Shown one piece after another: positions 36,505 to 64,000 of a stretch of DNA of 64,000 bases. The notes under the pieces were generated by a model. The model ran no database searches and was not told where the DNA came from. It saw only the letters and a program-made list of their open reading frames with translations. The stretch lies in the NCBI GenBank assembly GCA_947372355.1, contig CANBTI010000005.1, positions 103-64,102 on the forward strand, read 5' to 3'. The translations under genes were made by a program, and so were the position numbers. Source of the DNA: Bdellovibrionales bacterium. GTDB taxonomy: Bacteria; Bdellovibrionota; UBA1018; CAIMNF01. The first letter of the stretch is position 1; every line of letters starts with the position of its first letter.

Positions 36505-36507
36505 GGT

Positions 36508-38827: not shown

Positions 38828-38852
38828 TAACTTTCATTGCAGGAAGTGAAAA

Positions 38853-39991
38853 TTGAACAAAAACCTAGGATTAGTATTAATGAGCGGAGGGGCACGAGGC
38901 GCCTACCAAGCTGGCGCGTTGCGAGCGATTGCTGAAATATCAAAAACTGAAACCTTACCCTTCCCCTACTTAACTGGAATATCTGCAGGAAGCTTGAATT
39001 GTGGATTTTTAGGTTGCTATGCAGATAACTTTAATCAAGCGGTCAGCAAACTAACAGACCTTTGGTATAACATTACACCAAGTGATATCTTCACCACTGA
39101 TCCATTAAAACTTGTTAAAAATGGACTTGGATGGATTAAAGATTTTAGCATTGGTGGCGTGGTAGGAGGCGTGAAAGGACGTTCATTACTAGACACCGCT
39201 CCTTTAAGAGAACTCTTAATTAAAAATTTAGACATGACCAAATTGGTTGATCACATATCCACAGGAAAAATTAAGGGTTTTGCAGCTTCGGCAACTAACT
39301 ATTACACAGGAACTTCAGTAGTTTTTTTTGACGGAATGCCTTCTATTGAACCTTGGATTCGTAATACAAAGATGGGAATACGCACTACCATCACCATCGA
39401 GCACCTCATGGCATCATCTGCAATTCCATTTTTTTTCCTGCAGTTAAAGTGGGTAATGCATTTTACGGAGATGGGTGCATTCGAATGCATTCTCCACTGA
39501 GTCCGGCCATCAATATGGGTGCAGAAAAAATTATCGCGATTGGAGTACGACACGAGCGATTAGTAAAAAAATCCAGCGATTTAGAAACTCCTTATTTTAT
39601 ACATTATCCCTTATTTGCAGAATTGGGCGGAATGATCTTTAATGCCATATTTTTGGATTCTCTAGAAGATGACATTGAACTTTCACATTCAAAAAATGTT
39701 ATCTTTTTACTTACTTCAAAAAAAAAACAATCCGACACTCGAATAAAACATATTCCCACTATGCTTCTCAGACCATCAATCGATCTTGAAAATTTAGTAA
39801 GGAAATCAGCAAAAAAGTTTCCTATGACTATTCAACATTTTTTAAAAGGCATGGGAGCATCTAGTGAAACTGGCTGGAATTTGATGAGTTATCTTGCCTT
39901 TGATTCAACTTATACCAGTCGATTAGTGGAACTTGGATATGAAGATACAATTTTAGCCAAGAGCAAATTAACCGATTTTATGGAAATTTAA
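38853..39991 (+). pseudogene. Patatin-like phospholipase split by a frameshift in a T8 tract (39429-39436)
   Basis: ORF1 has the oxyanion hole GGARGAYQAG and GISAGS (GxSxG nucleophile); ORF2 (frame -1) has AVKVGNAFYGDGCIR (catalytic DG) and the rest of the fold. Restoring T9 gives AIPFFFPAVKVGNAFYGDG in one frame. Confidence 0.7.
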
Positions 39992-40356
39992 CAATTCAGT
40001 TTTTTTAAAGTTTCCAACAATCGTTTTAGATCGATTGGTTTTTTTAAAAAAGCATTTACTTTAATTTTTTTTGCTTGTTCACTAAATGCACTGATCACCA
40101 CTACTGGGATTTTAGAAATTAATCGATCATTTTCACGAAAATCCAAGAACTCCCATCCATCCATAATTGGCATCATGAGATCCAATAAAATCAAACAAGG
40201 TCTCGGAATTTTTTCCAAAACTTCAATCCCCTCTTGACCATTAGATGCTGCAAAAACCGTATAATGTTCTTTTTCAAGAACCTCAATTAATGTATTTCGA
40301 ACGGTTTCATCATCATCAATAATTAGGATAACTTGATTCTTCATATCTATTTTCAT
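39988..40356 (-). CDS. Single-domain response regulator receiver (CheY-like)
   Basis: ILIIDDDETVR...LILLDLMMPIMDGWEF...LKKPI. Confidence 0.8.
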   Translation of the reverse strand: MKIDMKNQVILIIDDDETVRNTLIEVLEKEHYTVFAASNGQEGIEVLEKIPRPCLILLDLMMPIMDGWEFLDFRENDRLISKIPVVVISAFSEQAKKIKVNAFLKKPIDLKRLLETLKKLNC

Positions 40357-41581
40357 GGCTGAAACTTGACTTCATCCAAACTAAAGATTCATTTACCAAA
40401 TGATCGATATTCCCCACCATTAACTTTGCATTTGATTCCGGCATTAAATCTATAGCGATTCGATTTGAAAAAATGAGTTCACTATGATCAGACTCTATTA
40501 TAAATAAAGTTGGGCACTTAATTTTTTGAAGTGGAATCAGTAAATCAGGTTTTCCATTCAGTGAAACCATGCCCTGTGTAAGAGGTTCAAATAAAGAAAC
40601 ACAATGTAAAATTGCCGCAACACCAGAGCCTGATCCAAAGAATGCTATTGGCAATTGATCAAAAACAACATTATTTTTCAACCATTGCGTGATCATAGAT
40701 AATCTTTGCGAAATAACATCAACATGATAATAATTCGAATTGGAATTAATTTCATCTTCAGTAAAGAGATCAAAAACCAAAGTTCCATAACCATTTTCAT
40801 TCAAACTTTTGGCAATTTTAAGATTTTTAATGTTTTTTCTGCAACTGCCCTTACCATGTACAAAAATAACCCAACCAGATATTTTTTTAGGCTTCACCAA
40901 TTCCCCAACAATTTTTTTACCAAACACTTCAATACTAACTTCGTTGAATGAAAAGTTTTTTAATTCTCTTTTAATCAGATCAACTTCTAAGGTTGGATAT
41001 TCTTCATACCACTCACCAACCGAGCCAAAAATTGAAGGTGTATGAGCAGAGAATAGATAATCTGCTTCTGATTTTACCAATTGGTATCCAGTAGGTGAAG
41101 CCACTGGTACTACCACAGTGATCTCTTTGGCCCCCTGAATTCTAAGCGAACGGAGCGCCACTAACATCGAAGCTCCTGATGAAATTCCATCATCTACTAA
41201 AATAACGGATCTATCCCTCACATCCATTGGATTCAATTTTAATTGAAAGATTCGTTCTATATTTTGAACTTCCATCATCGATCGTGCAATTGTTTTATCC
41301 AATTGAAATTGGTTAATATTTAAAAAATTAATTAATTCATTATTTAACCAAATCTGATAGCTATCACCTACAGCACCAATTTCATAATTTGGATTAAGTG
41401 GGGTTCCTATTTTACTGACTGCAATCATCTCTAATGAAGCTCTTAATTTTTTCGCAATCGCCTTTGCCACTGGAACGCCAGTCAACGATAAAGCCACAAC
41501 AACTGCATTTTTATACTTCCATTCGTTATAAATTGCATTTGCTAATACGATTCCTGCTTGTTCTCTATTTTTGAAATACAC
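40316..41581 (-). CDS. Fusion protein: N-terminal type-I phosphoribosyltransferase-like domain (COG1926-type) + C-terminal alpha/beta hydrolase (dienelactone-hydrolase-like)
   Basis: PRPP loop VILVDDGISSGASML; hydrolase GWVIFVHGKGS, nucleophile elbow FFGSGSGVAA, His in NIDHL; GTG start at 41581. Confidence 0.6.
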   Translation of the reverse strand: MYFKNREQAGIVLANAIYNEWKYKNAVVVALSLTGVPVAKAIAKKLRASLEMIAVSKIGTPLNPNYEIGAVGDSYQIWLNNELINFLNINQFQLDKTIARSMMEVQNIERIFQLKLNPMDVRDRSVILVDDGISSGASMLVALRSLRIQGAKEITVVVPVASPTGYQLVKSEADYLFSAHTPSIFGSVGEWYEEYPTLEVDLIKRELKNFSFNEVSIEVFGKKIVGELVKPKKISGWVIFVHGKGSCRKNIKNLKIAKSLNENGYGTLVFDLFTEDEINSNSNYYHVDVISQRLSMITQWLKNNVVFDQLPIAFFGSGSGVAAILHCVSLFEPLTQGMVSLNGKPDLLIPLQKIKCPTLFIIESDHSELIFSNRIAIDLMPESNAKLMVGNIDHLVNESLVWMKSSFSHENRYEESSYPNY

Positions 41582-41599
41582 GGTTTAATCCCCTAAGCA

Positions 41600-41866
41600 T
41601 TATTTTAAGATAATTTTTTTATCGTGATATGCAAAAACTGGTGGTGGCCTTTTGGGTGGGTATTTTGAATGGGTGTTTTGAATATGATTTGAATTTTCAA
41701 CAACCTGATTGGGCGGATTAAGCACTTGTTGTAATTGTATAATACTAAGGCTCACTAAAGTGATGCAATACACTTTCGACATTAATTTTCTCATCAGCGA
41801 TGAAAAATGTTTGAATTTATAACTTTCAGCAGAAGTTGAATAATACATAAGTTGAGCCCATCCCAA
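41600..41866 (-). CDS. Small membrane protein (first gene of sigma-54-driven operon)
   Basis: TTG at 41866 or ATG at 41848 (MYYSTSAE...); hydrophobic VYCITLVSLSIIQL; perfect-spacing sigma-54 promoter immediately upstream supports expression. Confidence 0.4.
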   Translation of the reverse strand: MGWAQLMYYSTSAESYKFKHFSSLMRKLMSKVYCITLVSLSIIQLQQVLNPPNQVVENSNHIQNTHSKYPPKRPPPVFAYHDKKIILK

Positions 41867-41876
41867 ATATTTATTA

Positions 41877-41891
41877 GCAACCTATATGCCA
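41877..41891 (-). promoter_or_regulatory. Sigma-54 -24/-12 promoter upstream of small-protein/PRTase-hydrolase/REC operon
   Basis: Minus-strand TGGCAT-atagg-TTGC (rc of GCAAcctatATGCCA). Confidence 0.55.
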
Positions 41892-41954
41892 TTAGCATTT
41901 CCAATGGACTTCAAGCAATTTTAGTTCATTGGGTTTAAAAAATCTGAATGAGAC

Positions 41955-42002
41955 AAAAAATACAATTAAGAAAGGGATGGTCCATTTAAGTCCCATCCCC
42001 TT
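41955..42002 (-). terminator. Candidate rho-independent terminator after gene 42054..42602
   Basis: aagggatgg (41972-41980) / ccatcccctt (41993-42002) stem, followed on minus strand by T-rich cttaattgtattttttgtctc. Confidence 0.4.
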
Positions 42003-42053
42003 CTCATTATTTTCCAACTCAATTATTAGTGATTTAGAAAAAAACTCCCGTCA

Positions 42054-42602
42054 TTAACGGCCATTATTGTTGTCACATGGTGTTGGAGTTGGAGTTACGG
42101 TAGATCTTGTAATATGTGCTTTAACTACACAATAGATCACTGCTCCAACAATCACCACTCCGATTACTCGCATTGCCCAACGGTAACTACCTTGACCCCC
42201 ACTATAATTAGCTCCGTGTTGGTAACTACCAGCCATGAAATTCATCGCTAGATTACCAGCTTGCTCAGCAGAAACTTGACTTGTATCAATGGAAGTTAAT
42301 AAACGATCAAAATCCGCTCTTGCAGCTTCATCTAGAGTTGTGGTGCGCATGAAATCCATGATTTCAGTTGGTGCAATACCTTGCGCTTGTAAATTTTCTA
42401 ATTTTTGTTTGAAATCTGTAATAGCAACAGTTTGAAAGTTTGGATCATTAGGATCAACTTCAACTGTCATTTTATATCGAAATTCATTAAATGTTTTAGC
42501 AATCATTTTTGAATGTAAATCAATGTTATCATTTCCTACTGCAGCGAATGCCGAGTTAGAAACCATAGCTAAAACTGTGAACAGACTGAATACTTTTTTC
42601 AT
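42054..42602 (-). CDS. Secreted/membrane-anchored protein, paralog A (signal peptide, conserved ~130-aa domain, C-terminal TM)
   Basis: MKKVFSLFTVLAMVSNSAFA; shares TFNEFRYKMTVEVDPND...RADFD.LL.S...VS.E.AGNLAM.FMA..YQ.GA.YSGG and the TM (VIGVVIVGAVIYCVV) with 42788..43777. Confidence 0.6.
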   Translation of the reverse strand: MKKVFSLFTVLAMVSNSAFAAVGNDNIDLHSKMIAKTFNEFRYKMTVEVDPNDPNFQTVAITDFKQKLENLQAQGIAPTEIMDFMRTTTLDEAARADFDRLLTSIDTSQVSAEQAGNLAMNFMAGSYQHGANYSGGQGSYRWAMRVIGVVIVGAVIYCVVKAHITRSTVTPTPTPCDNNNGR

Positions 42603-42645
42603 TACCGACTCCTTTGATTATTGTTTTGTAGACGAATCCCTAAAA

Positions 42646-42660
42646 GCAATCACTATGCCA
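42646..42660 (-). promoter_or_regulatory. Sigma-54 -24/-12 promoter upstream of paralog A
   Basis: Minus-strand TGGCAT-agtga-TTGC (rc of GCAAtcactATGCCA), 44 nt upstream of ATG 42602. Confidence 0.55.
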
Positions 42661-42711
42661 CCGCAAAATTAAATATAATGAATTAAACTTTTAAATTTTG
42701 GTCATTTTGTC

Positions 42712-42764
42712 TCAAAATAAAAAAGGTGGTAGAAATATTGAGACTTAACTCAACTTCTACCACC
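42712..42764 (-). terminator. Rho-independent terminator after paralog B
   Basis: ggtggtagaa (42725-42734) / ttctaccacc (42755-42764) 10-bp stem, followed on minus strand by ttttttattttgag. Confidence 0.5.
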
Positions 42765-42787
42765 TCTATTTTCAGCCATGTAAATCC

Positions 42788-43777
42788 TTAATTGAAGCCG
42801 TGGTCAGGAGGTCCTAACTTAATGCATAACTCGGGATAAAGAACAAACTCCAATGCTTCACCATGATCACATCCGGTAGGACTAGCTGGAACCACATGTC
42901 CACTCACTGTATTGCAACACCATCCGTAGTCAGTGTTAGTATGGGTATCTGTGCAAGTATTAGTTACTGTATTTGTTATAGTATCAGTAAGTGTATTTGT
43001 AATAGTATCCGTTACTGTATTAGTTAACGTTTCAAAATTAGTAATAGTATTATAATTGGTAACGGTTTGAACAGAGGTCACAGTATCAGTAGTTACCACT
43101 GTATTATAATTTGTTACTGTTTCTGTATTATTAATTGTTTCTACGTTCGTTACTGTTTGAGTATTCGTTTGAACTTCAGTAGTTGTCACGGTATCGGTAG
43201 TTGTTTGAGTTTCTGTGTTAGTTTGTGTTTGAGTGTTAGTTCTTGTGACCGTATCTGTTACCGTTTTTGATCGCTGATCTTTACAATGCTTAATCACTAA
43301 ATAAGTGACAACCCCAACAATGATCACACCGATCACGATTAATGCAGCCTTATAATTTGCTCTACCACCACCACTGTAACTCGCACCTTGTTGATATTTA
43401 GCTGCCATAAATCTCATTGCAAGATTACCGGCTTCTTCACTTGAAACTTTATCGAGATTCAATGAAGAAAGCATGAGATCAAAATCAGCACGAGTAGAAG
43501 AATCAAGAACTGATGAACGCATGTAATCCATCACTTCTTCAGAAGAAATCCCTTTGGCCTGCAGATCAGCCATACGGTTTTTAAAATCTTCCATTGCTTT
43601 AGCTTTATACTGCGTATCGCTTGGATCCAGTTCAACAGTCATTTTATATCTAAAATCATTGAATGTTTTAGAGATCATATTCCTATGAGAAGAATTTATT
43701 CCTTCATTCGTTATGCCAGCAAGTGCTGAATTGGAGAGCATCGTGATAATGGTTAATAACCCTATTATTTTTTTCAT
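42788..43777 (-). CDS. Secreted/membrane-anchored protein, paralog B, with long Thr-x-Thr repeat region and Cys-rich C-terminus
   Basis: MKKIIGLLTIITMLSNSALA; conserved domain and TM as paralog A; then TVTDTVTRTNTQTQTNTETQTTTDTVTTTEVQTNTQTVTNVETINNTETVTNYNTVVTTDTVT...TDTHTNT; C-term DYGWCCNTVSGHVVPASPTGCDHGEALEFVLYPELC. Confidence 0.6.
   Translation of the reverse strand: MKKIIGLLTIITMLSNSALAGITNEGINSSHRNMISKTFNDFRYKMTVELDPSDTQYKAKAMEDFKNRMADLQAKGISSEEVMDYMRSSVLDSSTRADFDLMLSSLNLDKVSSEEAGNLAMRFMAAKYQQGASYSGGGRANYKAALIVIGVIIVGVVTYLVIKHCKDQRSKTVTDTVTRTNTQTQTNTETQTTTDTVTTTEVQTNTQTVTNVETINNTETVTNYNTVVTTDTVTSVQTVTNYNTITNFETLTNTVTDTITNTLTDTITNTVTNTCTDTHTNTDYGWCCNTVSGHVVPASPTGCDHGEALEFVLYPELCIKLGPPDHGFN
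42950..43270 (-). repeat. Degenerate short-period coding repeats (gtNacN units) encoding the Thr-x-Thr tract
   Basis: Repetitive gtaac/gttac/gtatc units across about 320 nt inside gene 42788..43777. Confidence 0.6.
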
Positions 43778-43856
43778 TTATTTTTTCCTATTCTTGTTTT
43801 CTATTTTTTAAATACAATTTGCATTCAGCGCCTACCAATCGCGCCAAAAAGTGAAA

Positions 43857-43871
43857 GCAATGAATATGCCA
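43857..43871 (-). promoter_or_regulatory. Sigma-54 -24/-12 promoter upstream of paralog B
   Basis: Minus-strand TGGCAT-attca-TTGC (rc of GCAAtgaatATGCCA), 80 nt upstream of ATG 43777. Confidence 0.55.
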
Positions 43872-43930
43872 TTTTAAATTAAAATATATTTGATGTTTGA
43901 ATCGAGAATCGGAAGTTTAGTCTCATTTTT

Positions 43931-43973
43931 AAGCCCTTAAAAAGAAAAAAGGTGGTGATTTTAACCACCACCT
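43931..43973 (-). terminator. Orphan terminator-like hairpin (minus-strand orientation) between paralog B promoter and pfkA
   Basis: aggtggtg (43949-43956) / caccacct (43965-43972) with 8-nt loop; on minus strand followed by tttttctttttaaggg; no annotated minus-strand gene ends here. Confidence 0.35.
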
Positions 43974-44088
43974 TCTTTGGGTCATCGCAGACGTGGGCAG
44001 AATTAACAATACAAACTGCATAAAGTTAGCTCTACGCTGCCTTTGTCGACCCATCCATGAAGATTTAAAAGCATAATTTATGCCATTG

Positions 44089-53775: not shown

Positions 53776-55260
53776 TTATTCATCATTGCCACAATGTCCT
53801 GGCCCAACTTCACCATTATTATAATGGTCTAAAGTATCATGCCAGTTTGAAACATTATCTTTTTCGTTATCATCTAAGTTTTGCCAGTCATTTTGATTGT
53901 GATTGGAGAGGAATTGGTCACATTGGCTAATGATCGATGATACAGCTGATGTATCAGAGCCATGAGCTTTACTTAATTTAGCTGCAAGTAATTGTGCATA
54001 AAGTTTAGTAATTCCATTTGAAGACGATCCATAAACTTTTTGTCCAAGTACATCGATTGCTGTAGAAGTGGAAACAATGTTAAAAGACTTTGTTCCACCC
54101 ACTGTTCCTAGACATTGAACTAAGTTAGGAGTAACCGCAGCCATGTGATTTTTCCAATATCCAATTGTGTAAGTACAATTGTTTCCGCCAGTAGGGTAAG
54201 GAGTTGCTGTTGGAGTCGCAGTCGGTGCTGGAGTCGGAGTCGCAGTCGGTGCTGGAGTCGGAGTCGCAGTCGGAGTCGCAGTCGGAGTCGCAGTCGGTGC
54301 TGGAGTCGGAGTCGGTGCTCCGTATGGCAAGCAACCTTTGAATATATGATGATTATATTGACCTGCACCGTATGCAGATTGAGCAATAAAATGTCCATTC
54401 AATTGTCCTGATGGGAAAGTAACATCAGCAAATGGAGCCAAAATTGAACCTTCAAAAGAAATGTTTCCGATCCAGATTGATTGAGCGGTTGGAAAGTTAA
54501 ACACTACATGACTTTGATCTGTACCGTGCAATTCCATTGCAAAACTTGCAATCGTAATTGCAGAGCCTTTTACGTTGATCAATGCTGTTGAATCTGCAGG
54601 AATGGTTAAACTTAAAAATTGTGAACGTTCGAGATCATCCGTAGTCATAGTAAAAACGTTGATCACTGGATCAGTACCCACTAAAATAGTGTCGTGTCTT
54701 GAACTGATGTTTTCTAATGTCACCGTTGAATTAGAAACCAACCCACCTAAAGTAGTGGACATCGATTTTAAGTAGTCACCAGAATTTGCAAAACTAAGAG
54801 GGCTTACATGTTGAGTAAATCCACCAAAAGCAGACGTTGCGAATTTAGTTAAAGACCCACCATAAATAACCTTACCTTTATTTACAGCACCACTTTGAAA
54901 ATTTAAATCTCCATTAACGATGAGGTCTACTCGATTAGCATCTTCATCAAGAATTTCACCTACACTATAGTTTTGAATAGTTGCATTTCCGCCAACCGCT
55001 AATCTTCCTTCTGTATCCGAGCTTGGCGCTTCAAAATTACCTAGTGTAAAAACGTTGAAATCCCATGCATCTGATAAAGCTGCTTCATAACAAACACCGT
55101 AATTTGGCGTAATATGGGATGCCGATTGACTTAAATCAATGGAGTAAGATGGGTCAGTACCAGGAAGTACACATCCTGAAACAATGAACATCGTTCCTAA
55201 AATTAAAGAAACATTTTTAAAATTTTTATTAAACGAATTTTGTTTTCTCATAGATCTCAT
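53776..55260 (-). CDS. Lipoprotein with N-terminal choice-of-anchor-A-like domain, Pro/Thr/Ala repeat linker and Cys-containing C-terminal domain
   Basis: Lipobox IVSGC; DAWDFNVFTLGNFEAPSSDTEGRLAVGGNATIQNYSVG resembles choice-of-anchor A family; linker APTPTPAPTATPTATPTATPTPAPTATPTPAPTATPTATP. Confidence 0.6.
   Translation of the reverse strand: MRSMRKQNSFNKNFKNVSLILGTMFIVSGCVLPGTDPSYSIDLSQSASHITPNYGVCYEAALSDAWDFNVFTLGNFEAPSSDTEGRLAVGGNATIQNYSVGEILDEDANRVDLIVNGDLNFQSGAVNKGKVIYGGSLTKFATSAFGGFTQHVSPLSFANSGDYLKSMSTTLGGLVSNSTVTLENISSRHDTILVGTDPVINVFTMTTDDLERSQFLSLTIPADSTALINVKGSAITIASFAMELHGTDQSHVVFNFPTAQSIWIGNISFEGSILAPFADVTFPSGQLNGHFIAQSAYGAGQYNHHIFKGCLPYGAPTPTPAPTATPTATPTATPTPAPTATPTPAPTATPTATPYPTGGNNCTYTIGYWKNHMAAVTPNLVQCLGTVGGTKSFNIVSTSTAIDVLGQKVYGSSSNGITKLYAQLLAAKLSKAHGSDTSAVSSIISQCDQFLSNHNQNDWQNLDDNEKDNVSNWHDTLDHYNNGEVGPGHCGNDE
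54205..54320. repeat. Tandem 12-nt DNA repeats (gtcggagtcgca / gtcggtgctgga variants) encoding the PT(A) linker
   Basis: Near-perfect tandem units visible directly; spurious ORFs 54120..54398(-), 54125..54334(-), 54145..54411(+) arise from this repeat. Confidence 0.8.
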
Positions 55261-55272
55261 ACCTTAAATAAA

Positions 55273-55287
55273 GCAATTGCGGTGCCA
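55273..55287 (-). promoter_or_regulatory. Perfect-consensus sigma-54 -24/-12 promoter for the lipoprotein gene
   Basis: Minus-strand TGGCAC-cgcaa-TTGC (rc of GCAAttgcgGTGCCA). The -12 GC is only 13-14 nt from ATG 55260, which implies a leaderless or very short-leader mRNA, or the start at the in-frame ATG 55251. Confidence 0.65.
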
Positions 55288-55348
55288 AGCAATCTCCATC
55301 AATTCATGTTTATATTCATGAGTGTATTGAGCGACACTACTCAAACTA

Positions 55349-55386
55349 TTGACAGGATGATACTTTAGTTGACACATATAGTCAAC
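55349..55386 (+). promoter_or_regulatory. Direct TTGACA repeats and inverted repeat GTTGAC-N7-GTCAAC upstream of EPS-type operon (candidate operator/promoter)
   Basis: TTGACA at 55349-54 and 55369-74; palindrome agttgac-acatata-gtcaac at 55367-55386, 50-90 nt upstream of ATG 55438. Confidence 0.3.
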
Positions 55387-55437
55387 AACAAATGTGTAAG
55401 AATTCTTTAGCCATGCATCAATGATTTTAATTTTACT

Positions 55438-56466
55438 TTGCATGGCGCACCCAACCTCAGGTTTAATAGAAAAGTGATGAATTTGTTCATTGGATTATTT
55501 TTAGCTATTTTTATGGCATTTTTTACGCCCATTTCTGCTCAAGCAAAACCAACATGGTCTGCTTATGTGGCAGATTGGGGAAATATTTCAGATTCAACTG
55601 TTTTAATTGAAAATATACAAAACGTGGATACAGTTTGGCTGAGAATGTTTAGTGTTCTGCCGAACGGACACCTAGACACCAAGTGGAATCCTGCCGGCCC
55701 AGTTACACCAGTTTTACAAAAGTTGATGAAAATAAAGAATGGACCTCACTTTGGACCCATCATTCACAACGCCGGAGCGAATGGATTTTCACAAACATTC
55801 GGACGGCTCATTTTAAAATCTGCTGATCTATGGCTTCCTGAAATTTTAACACTCAAAAAAAAATGGAAATTTAATTCTCTTCAATTAGACATTGAAGAGA
55901 TGGACCCCGAAGATGCAATTCTATTCGAAGATACCGTCAAAAAAGTATCAATTTTTGCAAAAAAAAATAATCTCGATTTTTCGATCGCACTTCATGCACA
56001 AACAGAAAATATTCCTAAGAATGTTGGCGCTCGATTCCAGCGCTGGTCTGAATTAAAACAAATTCCAGTAAAAAAAATCGTCATGGGACTCGATTATTCA
56101 TGGGCCGGTGGAGAGCCGGGTCCGATTGCTCCAACCGAATGGCTTCAAAAAATTGTCGCTCATGCACTATTATTTTTTAAGCCTCAGGATTTGGTGGTTA
56201 CTTTACCATTGTATGGTTATCATTGGAGAAAAGGTAAACTCGGCGAATCTGCATTACCCGAAGAGTTTATCAGCAAAGTGACCCAAGATAAAAAATGGAA
56301 ACGAGATGTCATTCAAAATGAATCAGTTTATCGCAAAGAAGAAGAAGTTATCAGTTTTGAAAATACTGAATCCGTTCTTCAGAAAAAAACTGCCATCGAG
56401 AAATTGGGAATACACTCTTTTGCAATCTGGAGAGCCGGCGGCGAACTATCCAATCTCTATCGTTAA
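55438..56466 (+). CDS. Secreted GH18-like (chitinase-like TIM-barrel) glycoside hydrolase
   Basis: Signal peptide; GH18 landmarks in order: WSAYVADWG, IIHNAGANGFS (SxGG), NSLQLDIEEM (DxE catalytic), VMGLDYSWAG (MxYD), LPLYGYHW, FAIWRAGGE. Confidence 0.55.
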   Translation: MHGAPNLRFNRKVMNLFIGLFLAIFMAFFTPISAQAKPTWSAYVADWGNISDSTVLIENIQNVDTVWLRMFSVLPNGHLDTKWNPAGPVTPVLQKLMKIKNGPHFGPIIHNAGANGFSQTFGRLILKSADLWLPEILTLKKKWKFNSLQLDIEEMDPEDAILFEDTVKKVSIFAKKNNLDFSIALHAQTENIPKNVGARFQRWSELKQIPVKKIVMGLDYSWAGGEPGPIAPTEWLQKIVAHALLFFKPQDLVVTLPLYGYHWRKGKLGESALPEEFISKVTQDKKWKRDVIQNESVYRKEEEVISFENTESVLQKKTAIEKLGIHSFAIWRAGGELSNLYR

Positions 56467-57997
56467 ATATATCTTACCCACTCTCTTCATTGGATTGAAT
56501 GCTCATGCCATAAATAATGATCCGTGTAGCTTGCAAAGTTTAGATGAATTTAGAGCTGCCGCTCAAATGCAAAATCCAAAAACGGAAAGTTTATACAAAA
56601 ACATTAAAGATTGCGGTGCGCTCAGAAGTGAAGTTTTAATTTGGATGAGTTATTACGATCGAACGGTAGGAGGTAACTCTACAAGGTTGCTTGAAAACGA
56701 TTCTGAATCGAGCGATGCCCTCAGCGAGAGAGATGCACTCATTGCAAAAGCAAATCGAAATCTATACCAACCTCTAGAAGAAGTCGTTTATAATGAATCC
56801 AGCTCATACCATCATGATGCAGAGGCAATTCTTGTTTTAGCCAGAGCATTTACCCGAGGTTCAGAATTTACAAAAGCGCGTGAGTGCTATTTAAATTACT
56901 TAAAGTTAAAGCCTGATGATACTGAAATCGAAGTTGAGTATGCATATACATTTTTATGGGCCGGTGACACCAAAAACGCCGAAAAAAATCTAAAAGATCT
57001 TGAAATCAATTCTAAAAATGCCGAACAATCACGAGCAGCAAGAGAAGGCCTTAAAAGATTAAAACTAATGGGGCATCCAGCTTTTTCAGATATTATTTCT
57101 AGGCTAGAACATTTCAGTGTTGGACTTGAACGATACAATAATAACTTTTTTAATTTCTCTAGAACTTCTACCCTCCTCGAATATGGAAATAAAGGGTGGT
57201 TACTATTAGGATCTGCAGATTTTTTAAATTCTTCTCAATATTCTAATGCAGGTGGAGGTGGGCTCACCGGTAGTAAAAGTTTCGCACTCTCCCCTACGGT
57301 TTCAAGCTATGTAAAATTAGGATTTTTTAGTGCTGGAAAAGGCGGAGTTCCGGTTTTCCATTTGAATGTAAAAAAGGAAACTAAATCGGGATTAATTCCT
57401 GGAATTGGCTATTACAATGAAGCACTCGCTCATGATGTGCCCCTTCCATCCAGTAATTTGAATTGGTCACGTTCAGCCTTTTATGGAAGATTACAATTCA
57501 AACAATGGCTTGATTATAGAATTGAGTTTAGATCACTTGGATCTGGAACAGGTGGAACCACATCTACTGATCATCAAGTGCACATTAATATTCCAATTAA
57601 AGCAAATGAAGATGGTAGTCACCCATTAGAACTTTATATTTTAGCCGAGAATGAAGCATTCACCAAGGCAAGTACCTTTGTATATTCTCCGAATAGCTAC
57701 ACCGCACTCAAGGGTGGTTTACTCTATCAAGATCGCATGAACGATGAAATGGATTTAAAATTAAATCTTGAATATGGTCCATTTTATGAATCTGCAGCAA
57801 AGACTTCAGCACTTACTTATGGAAGCGCTGCTAACCTTTTGGGCATCGGCGGAGCATTCACTTACAAACTTGAACCGGATTTATTTGCCAATTTTAAATT
57901 CAGATATGATCGCACCCAATCCGATGAAGCAGGAACGACTTATGCTGCAACGGTTTTTGGATTAAATGTAACTTGGCTACTACAGGATGAACCATGA
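56306..57997 (+). CDS. TPR-repeat + C-terminal beta-barrel outer-membrane export protein (PgaA/PelB/BcsC-like); start ambiguous
   Basis: Signal-like KYILPTLFIGLNAHA, TPR-like helices (AEAILVLARAFTRGSEFTKARECYLNYLKLKPDD...), then about 330 aa of amphipathic beta-strands ending ...FGLNVTWLLQDEP. The first 160 nt overlap the GH18-like gene in another frame. Confidence 0.55.
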   Translation: MSFKMNQFIAKKKKLSVLKILNPFFRKKLPSRNWEYTLLQSGEPAANYPISIVKYILPTLFIGLNAHAINNDPCSLQSLDEFRAAAQMQNPKTESLYKNIKDCGALRSEVLIWMSYYDRTVGGNSTRLLENDSESSDALSERDALIAKANRNLYQPLEEVVYNESSSYHHDAEAILVLARAFTRGSEFTKARECYLNYLKLKPDDTEIEVEYAYTFLWAGDTKNAEKNLKDLEINSKNAEQSRAAREGLKRLKLMGHPAFSDIISRLEHFSVGLERYNNNFFNFSRTSTLLEYGNKGWLLLGSADFLNSSQYSNAGGGGLTGSKSFALSPTVSSYVKLGFFSAGKGGVPVFHLNVKKETKSGLIPGIGYYNEALAHDVPLPSSNLNWSRSAFYGRLQFKQWLDYRIEFRSLGSGTGGTTSTDHQVHINIPIKANEDGSHPLELYILAENEAFTKASTFVYSPNSYTALKGGLLYQDRMNDEMDLKLNLEYGPFYESAAKTSALTYGSAANLLGIGGAFTYKLEPDLFANFKFRYDRTQSDEAGTTYAATVFGLNVTWLLQDEP

Positions 57998-59283
57998 TCG
58001 TTAGAATGTTCATTGCGCTTTTTTTACTATTTGGGACCAGTATATTTTTTGATCCAGCAAAGATTCCACGTTTATCCACTACGGGATTCCTTGGATTCAT
58101 TAACTTTGGAATTATTTTTTATATTTTAATTTTAGCACTCAGGCATTTTGTCATGCTTTTTTTCTCAGCGCTTGAAACTGCACGCAGAGAAGGATTGCCA
58201 CAACCAAATTTCTTTCCTCCGATTTCGATTATCGTTCCTGCCTATAATGAGGGTGTTGTGATTCAAAGAACGATTGAACAACTGGCGCACATCAAATACC
58301 CAGTTTTTGAAATAATAGTTGTGGATGATGGAAGTAAAGATAACACTTACGATTTAGCTGTGGAAACTGCCAAATCGCATTCGCAAACGAGGGTATTAAC
58401 CAAGCCAAACAGCGGCAAAGCCAATTCTTTAAATTTTGGAATTAAAGAAGCTCGTTATGATTATGTGTTTTGTATGGATGCAGATTCCATCGTGCATGTA
58501 AACGCGCTCAGCATGGGTGCAAGACACCTCGTCGATCCATATGTTGTTGCAGTTGCAGGCTCAGTACTAGTACTCAATACCAACTCCATTGTTGGAAAAT
58601 TCCAAACACTTGAATATTTAACCGGGTTAAATTTTTATAAAGCAGCACAAAGTTTTTTTGGTCTAGTGATGATTATTCCAGGTCCTTCAGGATTATTTAG
58701 GAAATCTGCTTTGAACGCAATCGGCGGTTATGAAACAGATACTTTTGCAGAAGATTGCGATGTTACCCTTCGATTACTCATGAATAATGGGCGCGTGGTA
58801 TTTGAACCCGACATGGAAGTGAGAACGGAGGTTCCTGCTGATTTTTTACAATTAATTAAGCAACGATACCGTTGGAATCGCGGAATTCTTCAAGCAACTC
58901 GAAAACACATTGGCAAAATTTTTACATTTTATCAAGATCCAGCTTCAGCTGTAGTGGTTTCCTATATGTTTGTTGAATCAGTAATGTTACCCATCACTAA
59001 TATTTTCATCGGCGTATTATCTTTGTTTTACGTTTTTTACGCCATGGATTTTACGGTTGCTTCTTTGTGGCTGGTTCAACTCACGTTGATGGATCTTGCT
59101 GTAGTCGTGATGACCCTTTGGGATCAACGCTGGAGTTTAAATCTTTTATTTTATGCATTTTTCAATCGTTTTACTTATGCCTTCTTTCAAGACATTGTAA
59201 AAGTATTCTCCATGCTAGAGGAGTTTGCCGGAATTAGAATGAACTGGGGAAAATTAGATAGAACTGGGGTTTCTGGTTCATGA
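57994..59283 (+). CDS. Family-2 processive beta-glycosyltransferase (PgaC/IcaA/NodC/BcsA-like synthase)
   Basis: 2 N-terminal + 3-4 C-terminal TM helices; VVDDGSKDNT, FCMDADSIV (DxD), QRYRWNRG (QxxRW at 58861-58875). Confidence 0.85.
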   Translation: MIVRMFIALFLLFGTSIFFDPAKIPRLSTTGFLGFINFGIIFYILILALRHFVMLFFSALETARREGLPQPNFFPPISIIVPAYNEGVVIQRTIEQLAHIKYPVFEIIVVDDGSKDNTYDLAVETAKSHSQTRVLTKPNSGKANSLNFGIKEARYDYVFCMDADSIVHVNALSMGARHLVDPYVVAVAGSVLVLNTNSIVGKFQTLEYLTGLNFYKAAQSFFGLVMIIPGPSGLFRKSALNAIGGYETDTFAEDCDVTLRLLMNNGRVVFEPDMEVRTEVPADFLQLIKQRYRWNRGILQATRKHIGKIFTFYQDPASAVVVSYMFVESVMLPITNIFIGVLSLFYVFYAMDFTVASLWLVQLTLMDLAVVVMTLWDQRWSLNLLFYAFFNRFTYAFFQDIVKVFSMLEEFAGIRMNWGKLDRTGVSGS

Positions 59284-62210
59284 CACTTTTTGATGCAATC
59301 TTAACCTTGATTACGATTTTATCCGCATTCACTGTTATCCATTTCTGCTATAAACAACGAAAGCTAAAATACGCTAAACTAGGAATGGCAATCGGAATCC
59401 TTTCAATCCTTTATTGTGCTAATCCAATTTTGAGTTGGTATAAGATGAAGAATCTTAAATACTCCGGTCTGAATGAATCGGAGACTCAATCCGCATCGGG
59501 CGTTCCAATGGCACACGGGATTCCCACTCGTTGGACAGGTGAAGCCCTTTTGTTTGATCTCACCGTTGCTGGTAAATCGATTCAAAATTATATTGATGAA
59601 GCAGGACAAAAAAATAAACTTTTAATCTTTAGTGCAGAGAATGGAATTTTACCTGAATACCAAGCTTGGGCAGAAAAGGAATTTGGTAAAATTTTACCTG
59701 TAGATTCAGAAATAAATAATGTATGTTTTCGTCGTCAACCTGAAGTTCCTTATGCAAGTGGTATTTGTAGAGAGTTTAAAGCACGTTATTCACTTGTTCC
59801 TTCAGCTTCTGCATATGCAATCAGCTCAGATGGGAAAAATTCCTTTATTCACTTAAAACAGTCTGGTTTATCTCGATATGGAATTACTACTATTTCATTA
59901 GATGGTAGTCCTGAAACTTTGTGTTTATCTGAACTATCTAAAGGATCTGCCTGTGCTGGAGTAGAAATTTTGCCAGATGGTGCACTTTCAGTTTTATTTT
60001 TAGAAGCAACCGATCCAATCCAAAAACATGTAATGGAAGAATTTAAAGTTCCAGATATGAGTTTGGGAGAACTTCATTTGCAAAACTCCGATCATCAATT
60101 TAACTGTGGGGGGTTTGATTTAAAGAACAACCTCACCACCATTACCCATACTTCTTTAAAAACCAGACTCAGTCAAATCAACAGTGAAAATGAACTCACT
60201 GAAGTGATTCAAGATCTGAACTCTCACCTGCCTTGTCCTGGCCCGATCTCTCTTGAAGTTCCTGTTTTTCTAAATAGGAAACTAGAGCCAACCACTCGTT
60301 CATTTCTCACTCAGGTTCTTGAAAAACCATTCTGGGTTACTCCTCCAGCGAGTTATTTTGGAAGAAAACAAAAAATCGAAAAAACCGAACTTTTTCAAGA
60401 TGGATATAAATTGGTAGTTAAATCTCCAATCGAAATTAAAAACTTTGCAATTACCATCATGAGTCCCGTTACTTTTGATGAGGAGATCCTTCATTTCATT
60501 AAGCCCTCAAACATCAATGATTTTAAAATTTACAGAATCGGCGCCACTACCTTTAGGCTAGTTTCAAACCTAGTGAAGGATCTTGATTTTTCAGTAGATA
60601 CTGCTCCACTGCTTCGAGGAACTAGTGCCAGTAACGCATCTACCGTTTCAGACTGGACTGGATTTAATCGATCAATGTTGTTTGCTCTTTCTTTGGCTCT
60701 CATCATCAGTTGGCTTCAAGGATTTGCAACAGCACGCACAGAAAAACAGGTCTTTTTCCCCATGACCTTCTTTTATATTTGCTTCATTGGTTTACTTTGG
60801 TTTTTCTTAAGCAGTCGCGCTTCTTACTTAGGAGATCAAGGGGTTGCAAACTTAACTGAAGAGAGATTATCTGATCCACAATATATTACCGTGAGAGATT
60901 GGAATGAAAATTGGTGGAAAAAAGATCTTGAGGATCAAGAAGTGCATCAAGCAAGCAGTCAATCTAATAATGCCTCATGGAGAGCGGAAGTTGAACTTGC
61001 CAGAAAAGCTTCAAATTCAAATATTCCAACTGCAGAAGCAATTAAGTTTCTTGATTTAAATCCAAGTGCTAATCCAAAATATTTATCACAAGTGAGAATT
61101 CAAGTATGGGATGCACCTGAAGTTCGCAATTGGTACTTTAGAAAATCACCTTCGTACGCAAGCGCTCTTACGGCTTGGCAATCCTTACTTCAATTTCCAG
61201 AAATCAAGGGCGAAATTGATTCAAGCGCAACTCTAGATTTTAATCACATCAATCATAATACAATCATTGTAGTTCTTGATTATGCACTTCTTTCTGAATC
61301 AAATCAAAAAGCACTCAATGATTGGATCAGTAATGGAGGCACAGCCGTATTCCATACAGCGCTCGACTCTGCACTGAGTAAGGATCCTGAATTATTTCAA
61401 AAGAAAAATTACTCAAAAATTCCAGATGCGTTTGGAGTACCTCTAGAAATTAATCGAACTCACTTCATACAAAGTAAAACCGGAGATTGGTTCAATATTA
61501 AAAAAATTGGTAGTGGAAGAAAAGTGTTTGCAGGGGTTGTTCCATACCAAACAAACTCACTTCAATTGTTAAAGGAACTATTACACGGATTAAATCGATC
61601 AAGCGTGGTCGTGAATTCATTTCATGATGATGGCTGCCACACCGCTATTTTTGCAGAACCTTATGGTGCAAGTTCTGAAACTTTGCGAAGCTTTTCGAAT
61701 CACTTAAAAGCTACTGGTGTAAATATTCAATGGGCTATTTCTGCGGAAAGTTTTGCTAGAATGGCCCCAGAGTGGAAAAATACATTTACCCCTCAAAACA
61801 TAGCCTTTTTAGATGATGGAAAGCCGATCATGCGCGCATTCTCCACAGAACTTTATCAACGGTTCTTTAAAGTAACCAGTAAACCAGTATTCATAACGAT
61901 TAAGGATGAAAAACCAAACTTGATTGGACCCGAGGCGTTGTTAGTGAGAGCGGAAGTTCTTGAATCGGTTGATCTTTGGGAGTCTAGCTGCATTACAGGA
62001 GTTTCTCGTCCTAGACTCCTCACTTCAAACGAAATCAAAAACTCAATTGGAATTTGGCAAAACAAGATTTCCTCTTTAAAAACATTCCATTTTCAAACTG
62101 GAATTCAACTTTTAGATAATGCACCACTTTTATCATCTCCCGGAAAACGTAAGTGGATTAGTAATGAATCGAACCCCATGAAGTACGCCCCCGAAAGGAC
62201 CTCACCATGA
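59280..62210 (+). CDS. 976-aa multi-pass membrane protein of EPS-type locus (unknown; C-terminal region with possible class-I glutamine-amidotransferase-like fold)
   Basis: TM helices at N-terminus and around aa 470-520; ATGA-coupled to GT2 gene; C-term IIVVLDYALLSESNQKALNDWISNGGTAVF. Confidence 0.55.
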   Translation: MTLFDAILTLITILSAFTVIHFCYKQRKLKYAKLGMAIGILSILYCANPILSWYKMKNLKYSGLNESETQSASGVPMAHGIPTRWTGEALLFDLTVAGKSIQNYIDEAGQKNKLLIFSAENGILPEYQAWAEKEFGKILPVDSEINNVCFRRQPEVPYASGICREFKARYSLVPSASAYAISSDGKNSFIHLKQSGLSRYGITTISLDGSPETLCLSELSKGSACAGVEILPDGALSVLFLEATDPIQKHVMEEFKVPDMSLGELHLQNSDHQFNCGGFDLKNNLTTITHTSLKTRLSQINSENELTEVIQDLNSHLPCPGPISLEVPVFLNRKLEPTTRSFLTQVLEKPFWVTPPASYFGRKQKIEKTELFQDGYKLVVKSPIEIKNFAITIMSPVTFDEEILHFIKPSNINDFKIYRIGATTFRLVSNLVKDLDFSVDTAPLLRGTSASNASTVSDWTGFNRSMLFALSLALIISWLQGFATARTEKQVFFPMTFFYICFIGLLWFFLSSRASYLGDQGVANLTEERLSDPQYITVRDWNENWWKKDLEDQEVHQASSQSNNASWRAEVELARKASNSNIPTAEAIKFLDLNPSANPKYLSQVRIQVWDAPEVRNWYFRKSPSYASALTAWQSLLQFPEIKGEIDSSATLDFNHINHNTIIVVLDYALLSESNQKALNDWISNGGTAVFHTALDSALSKDPELFQKKNYSKIPDAFGVPLEINRTHFIQSKTGDWFNIKKIGSGRKVFAGVVPYQTNSLQLLKELLHGLNRSSVVVNSFHDDGCHTAIFAEPYGASSETLRSFSNHLKATGVNIQWAISAESFARMAPEWKNTFTPQNIAFLDDGKPIMRAFSTELYQRFFKVTSKPVFITIKDEKPNLIGPEALLVRAEVLESVDLWESSCITGVSRPRLLTSNEIKNSIGIWQNKISSLKTFHFQTGIQLLDNAPLLSSPGKRKWISNESNPMKYAPERTSP

Positions 62211-63583
62211 GTAACCCATTTCACTGGAATCATCGAAGTTTAGATCAGGTGTGTGAAAAACTACAAGATTTTAGCACTTTGCTTTTGAGTGCAAAAGATG
62301 CTGCCGATCTCGATACACTTTGGAAATTAGCAAAAGATCGCTTATATCCCAATATTTTAAATGCTTCGCTTCAAACATATATTTTTGATGAGCGAAATAT
62401 GGATATTCAGGAATTAAAATCGATTAACGTGAAAACTGCAGATGTAATCTTATTTAGAAAGAAAAGTGCTGGTGGCTCTTGGGATCAAACCATCTTAAAA
62501 GATCTAGCAGAACTCCCAGGTGCGGTGCTGGCATTTTCAGAAACCACACCCCTAAATTGGAATACTCTATTTGATATCGTTTTAGAACTGAAAGATCCCA
62601 TTTGTAGAATACATAGAAAAAATGATCCTAAGCATGAGGAAGTTGCTTTTACGTTTACTGAAAAGAAGGCTACCACCACTACTCAATCGTTAAGTGAAAA
62701 GGCCAAAGGAATTGTTTACTTTCTAGATGTAGATCCAACTCTTCAAAAAAGTATCACTCGTGGAATTGCTTTCGCAAATTTAGAAGTGCATTCCATTGAT
62801 CAGGATCAATCCATTCCTAGCTTTTCCCAAGGTGATTTTTTAATTACGGATCTAGCAGAAGATCACCCTAAACTTGTAGAATGTTTTGAACTTGCCAGAT
62901 CAAACTCCGTTCCGGTGATTGTGATCGGTAAAAAACTGAAACGAGTTGAAGATCGACTCCGGTTGTATGATTGGGGATCCACTTTTATACTACCTAAGGA
63001 TGCCTCTAACGCTGAACAAATTGCATCGATCACTTCCATTTTGAAGTTTTCTGGCCATAATCAAGTTTCATCCGTATTTGCGATGGATGAGTGGGATATT
63101 GAACTTCAACGCCTTTCTCAAAAAGTAAAAAGAGATCTCTCCTGGAACGAGAACCAAACACCAGAATTGATCAATTACTATAAAGCGTTTGTTTCTCACT
63201 TAATCAAACGCTCCCAACATTCAGGCACACCATGCGGAGTGATTAGAATCCCTCTGCCAGATCTCTCCGCAATTGCCGCTGAAAAGGCATCTTGGATTAA
63301 TTTAATGCGTAGAACACTTTTGCAAAGCCTAATCGCTACCGTAAGACAAAGAGACATTACCTTTGTATTCGAAGATCACTTGGTTATTATTTCTGGCGAT
63401 CTTTCTCCATTAGGATCTACGTACGTGGTGAATCGAATTCAAGCACAATTAAAATCTTTGGGTGAAACTCCAGCTAAAGTTGAACGACTTTCATTCATTC
63501 CAGAAAATTATCAAAGAAATGGGGAAGCTGAAGAATTATTAAAAAAAGCGGTCTCCAAATTCTTCGGGAATGAAGGTACATGA
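62207..63583 (+). CDS. Cytoplasmic protein with C-terminal degenerate GGDEF-like domain retaining an RxxD I-site (candidate c-di-GMP receptor, PelD-like logic)
   Basis: VRQRD-ITFVF-EDHLV: RxxD (63344-63355) followed 5 residues later by the position of GG(D/E)EF, which reads EDHLV; flanking segments (GVIRIPLPDLSAI..., STYVVNRIQAQL) fit GGDEF secondary-structure pattern. Confidence 0.45.
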   Translation: MSNPFHWNHRSLDQVCEKLQDFSTLLLSAKDAADLDTLWKLAKDRLYPNILNASLQTYIFDERNMDIQELKSINVKTADVILFRKKSAGGSWDQTILKDLAELPGAVLAFSETTPLNWNTLFDIVLELKDPICRIHRKNDPKHEEVAFTFTEKKATTTTQSLSEKAKGIVYFLDVDPTLQKSITRGIAFANLEVHSIDQDQSIPSFSQGDFLITDLAEDHPKLVECFELARSNSVPVIVIGKKLKRVEDRLRLYDWGSTFILPKDASNAEQIASITSILKFSGHNQVSSVFAMDEWDIELQRLSQKVKRDLSWNENQTPELINYYKAFVSHLIKRSQHSGTPCGVIRIPLPDLSAIAAEKASWINLMRRTLLQSLIATVRQRDITFVFEDHLVIISGDLSPLGSTYVVNRIQAQLKSLGETPAKVERLSFIPENYQRNGEAEELLKKAVSKFFGNEGT

Positions 63584-64000
63584 AGTTTTACTTGTTTCTC
63601 TCGAATCTGCTTTTTGGGATCACCCTACTCACCTTCGCGGTGGCAGTGAGCCACTTCCTGGGAATTATTTTAATTAAGCGTTTACCGCACATGCCGATAG
63701 CAGTAAAAAAACAATTCCGTTTTCTACTTCTTTTTGCATTCATATCCATCAGTATGTTTCTATTCTTTGGTAAATTGATAGGAGTAGGTGCGCATTCTTT
63801 GCGTTTTGCTGATGAAGCAAGAATTACCGAAGGCTTAGTTCCCAGACTCATTCAGTCTCAAGTTGCCAAAGAATCCAGTTTCGTTGAAACTCCAATCTCT
63901 TTAGAGCAAAGCATCACATTATTTAATCCAGAAGTTGAAAGTGAATCTGAAAAATACTCCTCACTTGGATTATCGATGCGTTTTATTTCCAGTGCTAAAG
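63580..64000 (+). CDS. Membrane protein, 5' portion (continues beyond window end)
   Basis: ATG 63580 overlaps upstream stop (ATGA); open frame to window end; two TM helices (LFLSNLLFGITLLTFAVAVSHFLGIILI; LLLFAFISISMFLFFG). It is absent from the ORF track because it is truncated, and the minus-strand ORF 63588..63851 is its antisense. Confidence 0.5.
   Translation, partial: MKFYLFLSNLLFGITLLTFAVAVSHFLGIILIKRLPHMPIAVKKQFRFLLLFAFISISMFLFFGKLIGVGAHSLRFADEARITEGLVPRLIQSQVAKESSFVETPISLEQSITLFNPEVESESEKYSSLGLSMRFISSAK

Follow-up and report, generated by a model that had tools for sequence, protein, structure and literature searches.

Of the synthase-dependent systems for exopolysaccharides, only a handful are understood. 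Every addition to them has brought to light new periplasmic handling proteins and new modes of reading cyclic di-guanosine monophosphate (c-di-GMP). PelD, YdaK and PssE (the last from Listeria) are degenerate GGDEF proteins that serve as I-site receptors within exopolysaccharide operons and activate the synthase. Both PelD and YdaK are anchored in the membrane; the architecture of PelD is GAF-GGDEF, and the Pel system uses a GT4 glycosyltransferase. The Yda operon of B. subtilis (ydaJKLMN) encodes a glycosyl hydrolase and a GT2 glycosyltransferase alongside large proteins without a known function (PMC13274460). BcsE is a cytosolic protein with an N-terminal alpha/beta domain, a degenerate REC domain and a degenerate GGDEF domain; it binds c-di-GMP via an RxxD I-site, and BcsF, a short protein, recruits it to the membrane (PMC7439463). 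Synthesis of poly-N-acetylglucosamine (PNAG) is controlled by c-di-GMP, and a survey of synthase-dependent operons described divergent pga operons without pgaB and pgaD in environmental bacteria; the same survey mentions no GH18-containing system (PMC7112194). The GH153 domain of PgaB resembles GH18 structurally only and is without the GH18 motif (PMC5933820). Here we describe a locus at the 3' end of a 64,000-nucleotide stretch of contig CANBTI010000005.1 (positions 103 to 64,102) from a Bdellovibrionales bacterium; this whole stretch is called the window. The locus comprises six plus-strand genes between 55477 and 64000 (genes 1 to 6) with one minus-strand lipoprotein gene alongside. We think it reasonably likely that it encodes a trans-envelope, synthase-dependent Pga-type exopolysaccharide secretion machine, gated by c-di-GMP, in a diderm bacterium. 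The predicted product is probably a polymer based on N-acetylglucosamine (GlcNAc), and we regard the locus as a Pga-like variant of synthase-dependent secretion that has not been described before.

The six genes are tightly coupled. Gene 2 starts about 47 nt within gene 1, and 4-nt ATGA overlaps are found at the junctions of porin and GT2 genes, GT2 and 976-aa genes, 976-aa and 458-aa genes, and 458-aa gene and gene 6. Translational coupling had been proposed in a reading made from the letters and open reading frames (ORFs) of the window (hereafter the sequence-only reading), and it is real; all the ORFs named there are present at their positions. The same reading had seen a further membrane protein after the 458-aa gene and had raised the question of whether the locus runs past 64000. 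Both points hold: gene 6 encodes two N-terminal transmembrane (TM) segments, is open at the window end and is complete in related loci. The core order porin-GT2-976-458-686 (the numbers are protein lengths in aa) is seen again in no fewer than five other metagenomic loci, L002, L004, L005, L009 and L011, and a part of it is kept in the P0054 locus. Protein identities are 22-73%, and the GC contents of the five loci are 38-58%. Since the core gene order is kept across loci, the operon is not a chance assembly. The homologue of the 976-aa protein is 73% identical in L002, where the operon is complete and is followed by a 93-aa ORF and glmS, 60% in L004, where the order is the same, and 43% in L005. 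L009 is more distant (26% for the 976-aa homologue, GC 0.58) and reads porin-GT2-1045-479-774 on a contig that begins within the porin gene. L011 (GC 0.56) has a GT2 with 63% identity and reads porin-GT2-1043-473-796, and the P0054 locus has GH18-porin-GT2-1047 only, with a GT2 that is 57% identical.

The operon is real and conserved but very rare, and it occurs only in a few uncultured lineages. A word-indexed search of 5.8 billion proteins found four relatives of the 976-aa protein and five of the 458-aa protein. When 1.84 billion cluster representatives were searched exhaustively with a hidden Markov model (HMM), the 976-aa family yielded only 22 clusters, most of them with proteins of about 1000 aa. 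Neither family appeared in pattern scans of 185,579 GTDB species, represented by one genome each. In a further pattern search with the 976-aa family, a subset of 9 sequences worked, the alignment of 17 being too diverse. The GC content of the operon (0.381) equals that of the window (0.383), and there is therefore no sign of recent acquisition. For the operon itself, neither a sigma-54 promoter nor a clear sigma-70 promoter was found.

The synthase is the best conserved part of the operon, with 59% identity even in L009. The sequence-only reading described it as a processive GT2 with QRYRWNRG, and this was confirmed. Processive GT2 enzymes were recognized by the D, DxD, (T/A)ED and QxxRW motifs together with N- and C-terminal TM helices, all of which are present: DDGS (111-114), DAD (162-164), FAED (251-254) and QRYRWNRG (290-297) are invariant, and two N-terminal and about three C-terminal TM segments lie within residues 1-63 and 320-376. 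These features class it among the membrane-embedded processive synthases. The best family is PgaC_IcaA with 200.7 bits, followed by MftF (98 bits) and NodC (92 bits). The Pfam families Glyco_trans_2_3 and Chitin_synth_2 are above their cut-offs, and solved relatives include hyaluronan and cellulose synthases.

Gene 2, the presumed exporter, has a TPR region at about residues 100-215. The family profile matches designed consensus TPR (CTPR) proteins (E 2e-6), and Pfam TPR families match four of the five orthologues, with TPR_14 E-values as low as 1.8e-7, in agreement with the TPR domain first noticed in this porin. The C-terminal approximately 300 aa are rich in Gly, Ser and aromatic residues and show the pattern of alternating beta-amphipathic strands. 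A conserved ...FG(L/I/V)N(V/L)(T/V)W lies near the C-terminus, and the region matches BBP2_2 weakly (E 0.03). The L009 orthologue is 31% identical.

Gene 5 encodes the putative c-di-GMP receptor. The 458-aa protein is soluble and has three domains: at the N-terminus an alpha/beta domain that resembles REC or RecA, then a REC-like one at about 169-280 and a degenerate GGDEF domain at about 320-450. An AlphaFold model built with five family members reached a predicted local distance difference test score (pLDDT) of 67.5. In Foldseek searches against the PDB, its best matches were the REC-GGDEF proteins DgcR (8.6e-8), PleD (about 3e-7) and WspR; the GGDEF-only construct 3i5c (3e-3) and residues 217-523 of BcsE (REC*-GGDEF*, 6ybb; 3e-4) were also matched. 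The PleD alignment covers the whole 458 residues in about 500 columns, and PleD, a REC-REC-GGDEF protein, has chains of 439-458 residues in the PDB. An alignment of seven family sequences, down to 22% identity, has 37 invariant columns, and R380, D383 and R410 are invariant in 7/7. The RxxD reads RQRD, RSHD or RSTD and stands five residues before the former GGDEF, which has drifted to EDHLV in the window protein and to EGYLV or ANHLV; R410 lies 30 residues past this position. In PleD, the I-site residues are R359, D362 and R390 (PMC7288161). In a profile alignment with the GGDEF domain of PleD, whose sequence was entered by hand, R380, D383 and R410 align with these three residues.

The GGDEF active site is lost, and the beta1 metal-binding Asp residues are replaced. 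In the second REC-like domain (REC2), close relatives keep the phospho-acceptor Asp at the end of beta3, but P0009, L009 and L011 do not. The acidic pair is not conserved across the family either, and REC1 has neither the Asp nor the pair. Because the active site is lost and the phospho-acceptor pocket is not conserved, gene 5 is read as a sensor and not as a cyclase; in the model it looks like a cyclase turned I-site c-di-GMP sensor. It has the features of an I-site receptor, namely a GGDEF fold, RxxD and a third Arg, and c-di-GMP binding is a prediction from these. The sequence-only reading had proposed a catalytically dead GGDEF that retains RxxD; the fold, the lost active site and the RxxD support this, and no sequence HMM detects the GGDEF. 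No protein with a GG[DE]EF motif is encoded in the window or in the fetched related loci. A second invariant motif, R246-x-E248-D249-R250, lies in the REC-like domain and is read as KRVEDR, VRDEDR and QRDEDR. This motif might contact c-di-GMP a second time or serve as an interface with another protein.

The hydrolase encoded by gene 1 was first described as GH18-like. It is above the Pfam threshold (PF00704, 34.1 bits vs a 29.6 cut-off, profile positions 4-315 of 317) and retains the catalytic D-x-E, as D138-I-E140 is invariant in a motif that reads LQLDIEE. In the full motif DxxDxDxE, the first two Asp are N/T/D and Q. The protein has a signal peptide that ends in AQA before K and one N-terminal hydrophobic segment. 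Catalysis by GH18 enzymes is substrate-assisted and requires a 2-acetamido sugar.

The two large membrane proteins belong to no known family. Gene 4 has no Pfam or NCBIfam match. TM segments are predicted at 1-25, 34-52, 465-485 and 490-512; the first large domain (about 53-464) has six conserved Cys, and the second (about 513-976) has two, together with the motifs WDxPxARNxYFRK and FLDDG. The positive-inside rule and the six plus two conserved cysteines suggest that both domains are probably periplasmic. To call this protein polytopic, as the sequence-only reading did, was an overstatement: four TM helices bracket two large Cys-rich, probably periplasmic domains. A GATase1-like module at about 650-760 is indicated by weak DUF4350/GH42M matches in distant homologues, and the family profile gave only a marginal match in the PDB, to GH42 beta-galactosidase (GATase1-like domain). 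A structure model made from a 4-sequence alignment was of low confidence (pLDDT 35.6).

The domains of gene 6 were read from its orthologues, which are complete in related loci; its CE4-like domain lies beyond the window end. The order is two N-terminal TM segments, a periplasmic GATase1-like domain (DUF4350), a CE4-like domain and a C-terminal beta-sandwich-like region. The orthologues match DUF4350 with up to 28.9 bits. For Polysacc_deac_1 (PF01522), the L004 orthologue has 23.1 bits, which equals the cut-off, and those of L005 and L002 have 20.1 and 15.4 bits. When the profile was compared with the PDB, 20/20 matches were CE4 deacetylases (E 0.003-1). A weak profile match between genes 4 and 6 (hhalign E 8e-4, probability 24%) hints at a GATase1-like plus barrel module common to both. 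A paralogous relationship between the two genes was considered and rejected as weakly supported; BLASTP found nothing. We also rejected gene 6 as a member of DUF2194 (PF09960), which we take to be the YdaL family, and with it a diderm Yda system: scores were 11-12.6 bits vs a 30.4 cut-off, and the matches span about 45 of 582 profile positions, all in the GATase1-like segment. Beside the 3' end of the operon, a single-TM protein of about 93 aa without a Pfam family is encoded in four loci, with 35-57% identity. All these ORFs lie past the window end; in L009, a single-TM protein of 125 aa is an analogue by position only. The protein could be a small partner like BcsF or PgaD.

The divergent lipoprotein is present as first reported, although it had been passed over as a bystander, and this does not hold: orthologues adjoin the operon in L002, L005, L009 and L011, and the lipoprotein is a conserved partner of the operon neighbourhood. 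It matches TIGR04215 (202.6 bits) and PF20597 (183 bits). Its sequence of 494 aa, or 491 aa from the ATG at 55251, contains a lipobox (...VSGC), a linker of Pro, Thr and Ala, and a C-terminal domain that is conserved. The L009 orthologue is 44% identical, which is above the identity of the 976-aa protein there. L011 has two tandem pAdhesive_15 genes of 309 and 373 aa; the 373-aa gene was considered as a GH18 gene and rejected, as it encodes the second pAdhesive_15 protein. Position and orientation of the orthologues differ between loci. A sigma-54 site was accepted as TGGCAC-N5-TTGC at a proper distance upstream of a gene. The sequence TGGCACCGCAATTGC lies 13 nt 5' of the lipoprotein ATG and is the sole perfect match in the 64-kb window. 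Perfect copies stand at the equivalent position in L002 and L009, L011 has a site with one mismatch, and L005 has a site with two mismatches, 38 nt upstream. The site is kept across loci whose proteins share only 26-44% identity. Sigma-54 control of the lipoprotein gene is predicted from the consensus and its conservation. In L005, rpoN itself adjoins the operon upstream.

No described system with this parts list was found in the literature searched, and the proteins specific to the locus are extremely rare, in line with the sequence-only reading, which did not recognize the combination as a described system. The computational checks proposed in that reading all spoke for it, and it stands with some amendments. 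The locus is, as far as its sequence tells, closest to Pga in logic. Like PgaABCD/HmsHFRS, it has a GT2 nearest to PgaC/IcaA and a TPR protein that resembles PgaA, with a probable C-terminal barrel, and its periplasmic glycoside hydrolase and CE4-like module recall the two domains of PgaB. It nevertheless falls outside Pga by the PgaC cut-off and by the lack of PgaB and PgaD. In contrast to Pga, there is no CE4 and GH153 fusion; the hydrolase is a true GH18 and a separate protein, the CE4-like domain is part of a membrane protein of about 686 aa and is without the canonical catalytic residues, the operon encodes no small TM protein that would correspond to PgaD, the 2-TM partner of PgaC, and a soluble REC-GGDEF* protein and the 976-aa membrane protein are added. 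Gene 5 shares the three-module layout of BcsE and matches it in Foldseek, and the single-TM ORF of about 93 aa near the locus recalls BcsF; unlike BcsE, however, gene 5 has no detectable sequence homology to it and no GIL-domain match in Pfam or NCBIfam. Unlike Bcs as a whole, the locus has a synthase without PilZ, no BcsQ/R or BcsB was detected, and the polymer is probably not cellulose. As with PelD, YdaK and PssE, gene 5 has a degenerate GGDEF with an I-site inside an exopolysaccharide-type operon, whereas it differs from PelD and YdaK in being soluble and in its REC-like domains. PleD, WspR and DgcR are its best fold matches, and the I-site R/D/R lies at equivalent positions, but gene 5 has EDHLV for GG(D/E)EF, replaced metal-binding Asp residues and no conserved phospho-acceptor pocket. 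By analogy, gene 5 may act like BcsE, PelD or YdaK, but it is not a member of their families.

GT2 enzymes that are 44-49% identical to ours form a sister clade, which is much larger and includes many clusters of metagenome-assembled genomes from Myxococcota and 'Deltaproteobacteria'. Its example locus, L012, resembles ours in that a TPR protein precedes the GT2 and a CE4 protein follows, but it is without members of the 976-, 458- and 686-aa families. The KaiC-like ATPase-REC protein of L012 was examined as a relative of the 458-aa protein and rejected, with no significant similarity. The L012 operon also looks undescribed.

We propose the following scheme for the locus. The GT2 would polymerise a UDP-activated N-acetylhexosamine (UDP-HexNAc), most likely UDP-GlcNAc, and push the chain through its own membrane channel. 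In the periplasm, the 976-aa and approximately 686-aa proteins, anchored in the inner membrane, would receive the chain as scaffold or modifying subunits; with their common GATase1-like module and the CE4-like barrel, they would stand in for PgaB, BcsB or AlgX/G/K. The secreted GH18 enzyme may trim or clear the polymer, as the GH153 domain of PgaB, BcsZ, PelA or AlgL do elsewhere, and the TPR-barrel protein would, like PgaA, bind the chain and conduct it through the outer membrane. The cytoplasmic 458-aa protein, unable to make c-di-GMP, would bind it at the I-site and activate the synthase, as PelD and BcsE do. At the surface, the sigma-54-driven lipoprotein probably acts together with the polymer, in the matrix or in adhesion. 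A HexNAc polymer is suggested by the PgaC affinity of the GT2, the D-x-E motif and mechanism of GH18, the CE4-like module, and glmS (glucosamine-6-phosphate synthase) in L002. The linkage may be beta-1,6 (PgaC-like) or beta-1,4 (GH18-like). The identity of the polymer and its gating by c-di-GMP, like the other functional statements made here, are drawn from sequence and fold in a few uncultured lineages.

Several results weigh against this scheme. For gene 5, the GGDEF family (PF00990) gave no Pfam match even at E up to 10, the C-terminal (GGDEF) domain of the model has a moderate pLDDT of about 40-73, and the hhalign comparison with PleD is weak (E 0.011, probability 3.7%). For gene 2, we infer the probable outer-membrane beta-barrel from the strand pattern of its C-terminal part. 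With a structure prediction of such low confidence, the scaffold or modifying roles given to the two large membrane proteins (976 and 686 aa) are guesses. In gene 6, the Asp-His-His metal triad of CE4 (TFDD, HSxxH) is not conserved (positions H/I, S/F and H/Q), and deacetylase activity is therefore doubtful. Within the same machine, the 458-aa protein might instead be an adaptor, either structural or for phospho-relay, and no c-di-GMP sensor. As a pseudo-receiver scaffold, it would link the synthase to two-component or sigma-54 signalling, and its conserved Arg and Asp would serve protein contacts. We consider such an adaptor unlikely: a phospho-acceptor Asp with its acidic pocket is not kept in P0009, L009 and L011, the three residues R380, D383 and R410 belong to only 37 invariant columns and map onto the PleD I-site, and Foldseek also matches structures that consist of GGDEF only.

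The nature of the product is the other point to be weighed. The GT2 is under every equivalog threshold, and for PgaC/IcaA (TIGR03937) it is far below, with 200.7 vs 422.3 bits, so that its product need not be PNAG. The nearest solved relatives of the GH18 protein are the spore-cortex, that is peptidoglycan, N-acetylglucosaminidases SleL, YaaH and YdhD (E about 1e-8). The known substrates of GH18 enzymes are beta-1,4 GlcNAc and peptidoglycan, and not beta-1,6 PNAG. Furthermore, no GH18 gene adjoins the L011 operon, which makes the enzyme accessory and not core. Together with a CE4-like domain that is without catalytic residues, these observations would fit a product other than a PNAG- or chitin-like HexNAc polymer, with the GH18 enzyme acting on peptidoglycan, for example to open the sacculus for the apparatus. 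Such a glycan seems rather unlikely to us, as PgaC/IcaA is by far the best family of the GT2 (all others have 98 bits or less), GT2 homologues carry the source label PNAG synthase, a GH18 gene heads the operon in five loci, and glmS adjoins the L002 operon. A third possibility is that the GT2 makes short chito-oligosaccharides, as NodC does, or a glycan that stays in the periplasm or bound to the cell. This product would anchor or modify the lipoprotein in a holdfast-like adhesin instead of forming a free matrix polymer. NodC is indeed the third-best family, the 429 aa of the GT2 correspond to the size of NodC, and the adhesin-like lipoprotein is tightly linked across lineages. However, a TPR-barrel exporter with two large periplasmic subunits is typical of polymer secretion, and the lipoprotein gene, which varies in place and direction between loci, has a sigma-54 promoter to itself; we regard this explanation as very improbable. 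We therefore retain the c-di-GMP-gated, Pga-type secretion machine as the preferred reading. A stronger claim can be put forward only tentatively and is on balance doubtful: the locus might represent a distinct, unrecognised secretion class beside Alg, Bcs, Pga, Pel and Nfr, with a PgaC-related synthase for a chitin-like (GH18-cleavable, beta-1,4) or new HexNAc polymer, a new type of periplasmic conduit made of the two GATase1-like/CE4-like inner-membrane proteins, a PleD-shaped, catalytically dead REC-REC-GGDEF protein as c-di-GMP switch, and a dedicated, sigma-54-controlled, polymer-binding lipoprotein adhesin.

The coordinates of the locus, of features in related loci and of other features of the window are collected in Table 1. 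A 59-aa ORF called by the gene finder between the lipoprotein gene and gene 1 is probably spurious, since it overlaps the sigma-54 promoter and has no call in L002. No Rfam family, c-di-GMP riboswitches included, and no rRNA or tRNA gene was found anywhere in the 64-kb window. The stretch 24000-44000 has a GC content of 0.33-0.36 vs about 0.40. It contains four sigma-54-like sites of the form TGGCAT-N5-TTGC and codes, among others, for a UDP-GlcNAc 2-epimerase, a sigma-54 activator, a GAF protein and a DACNK-DAC c-di-AMP cyclase-type protein.

Table 1. Positions of the locus genes and associated features, in window numbering unless another locus is named
Feature	Locus	Position	Strand	Size	Remark
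Lipoprotein gene	window	53776..55260	-	494 aa	choice-of-anchor A / pAdhesive_15
Sigma-54 (-24/-12) promoter consensus	window	55273..55287	-		TGGCACCGCAATTGC; upstream of lipoprotein ATG
Gene-finder ORF	window	55264-55443	-	59 aa	L001 5985-6164
Gene 1	window	55477..56466	+	329 aa	secreted GH18 glycoside hydrolase
Gene 2	window	56420..57997	+	525 aa	TPR + probable outer-membrane beta-barrel
Gene 3	window	57994..59283	+	429 aa	PgaC/IcaA-type membrane GT2 synthase
Gene 4	window	59280..62210	+	976 aa	inner-membrane protein, new family
Gene 5	window	62207..63583	+	458 aa	soluble three-domain protein, putative c-di-GMP receptor
R-x-E-D-R motif of gene 5	window	62942-62956			REC-like domain
Gene 6	window	63580..64000	+	686 aa in L002	membrane protein, first 140 codons before window end
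UDP-GlcNAc 2-epimerase	window	25634-26749			low-GC stretch
Sigma-54 activator	window	30223-31659			low-GC stretch
DACNK-DAC c-di-AMP cyclase-type protein	window	34795-35958			low-GC stretch
TGGCAT-N5-TTGC sites	window	34687, 41877, 42646, 43857	-		low-GC stretch
Sigma-54 site	L002	2774-2788	-		perfect
Sigma-54 site	L009	10062-10076	+		perfect
Sigma-54 site	L011	3091-3105	-		1 mismatch
Tandem pAdhesive_15 genes	L011	2146-4308	-	309 and 373 aa
Single-TM ORF	L002	13059-13340	-	~93 aa
Single-TM ORF	L004	11159-11440	-	~93 aa
Single-TM ORF	L005	13400-13705	-	~93 aa
Single-TM ORF	L011	15777-16058	+	~93 aa
glmS	L002	13469-15313	+		after the operon
Sister-clade operon	L012	6900-14169			KaiC-like ATPase+REC 559 aa, TPR 472 aa, GT2, 71-aa, 448-aa, CE4 428 aa

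With this locus, two large unannotated protein families gain a testable role from their context, and the CE4-like domain of gene 6 brings the locus nearer to the logic of Pga, in which a hydrolase is combined with a deacetylase-like module. The occurrence of a GH18 enzyme within such a system hints at a secreted bacterial polymer that is chitin-like or otherwise cleavable by GH18. In gene 5, nature would offer a clear case of a cyclase like PleD that has become a sensor by its I-site alone. In addition, the choice-of-anchor A (ice-binding-like) adhesin domain, which is still little understood, would be tied to a specific polysaccharide machine and to sigma-54 control.

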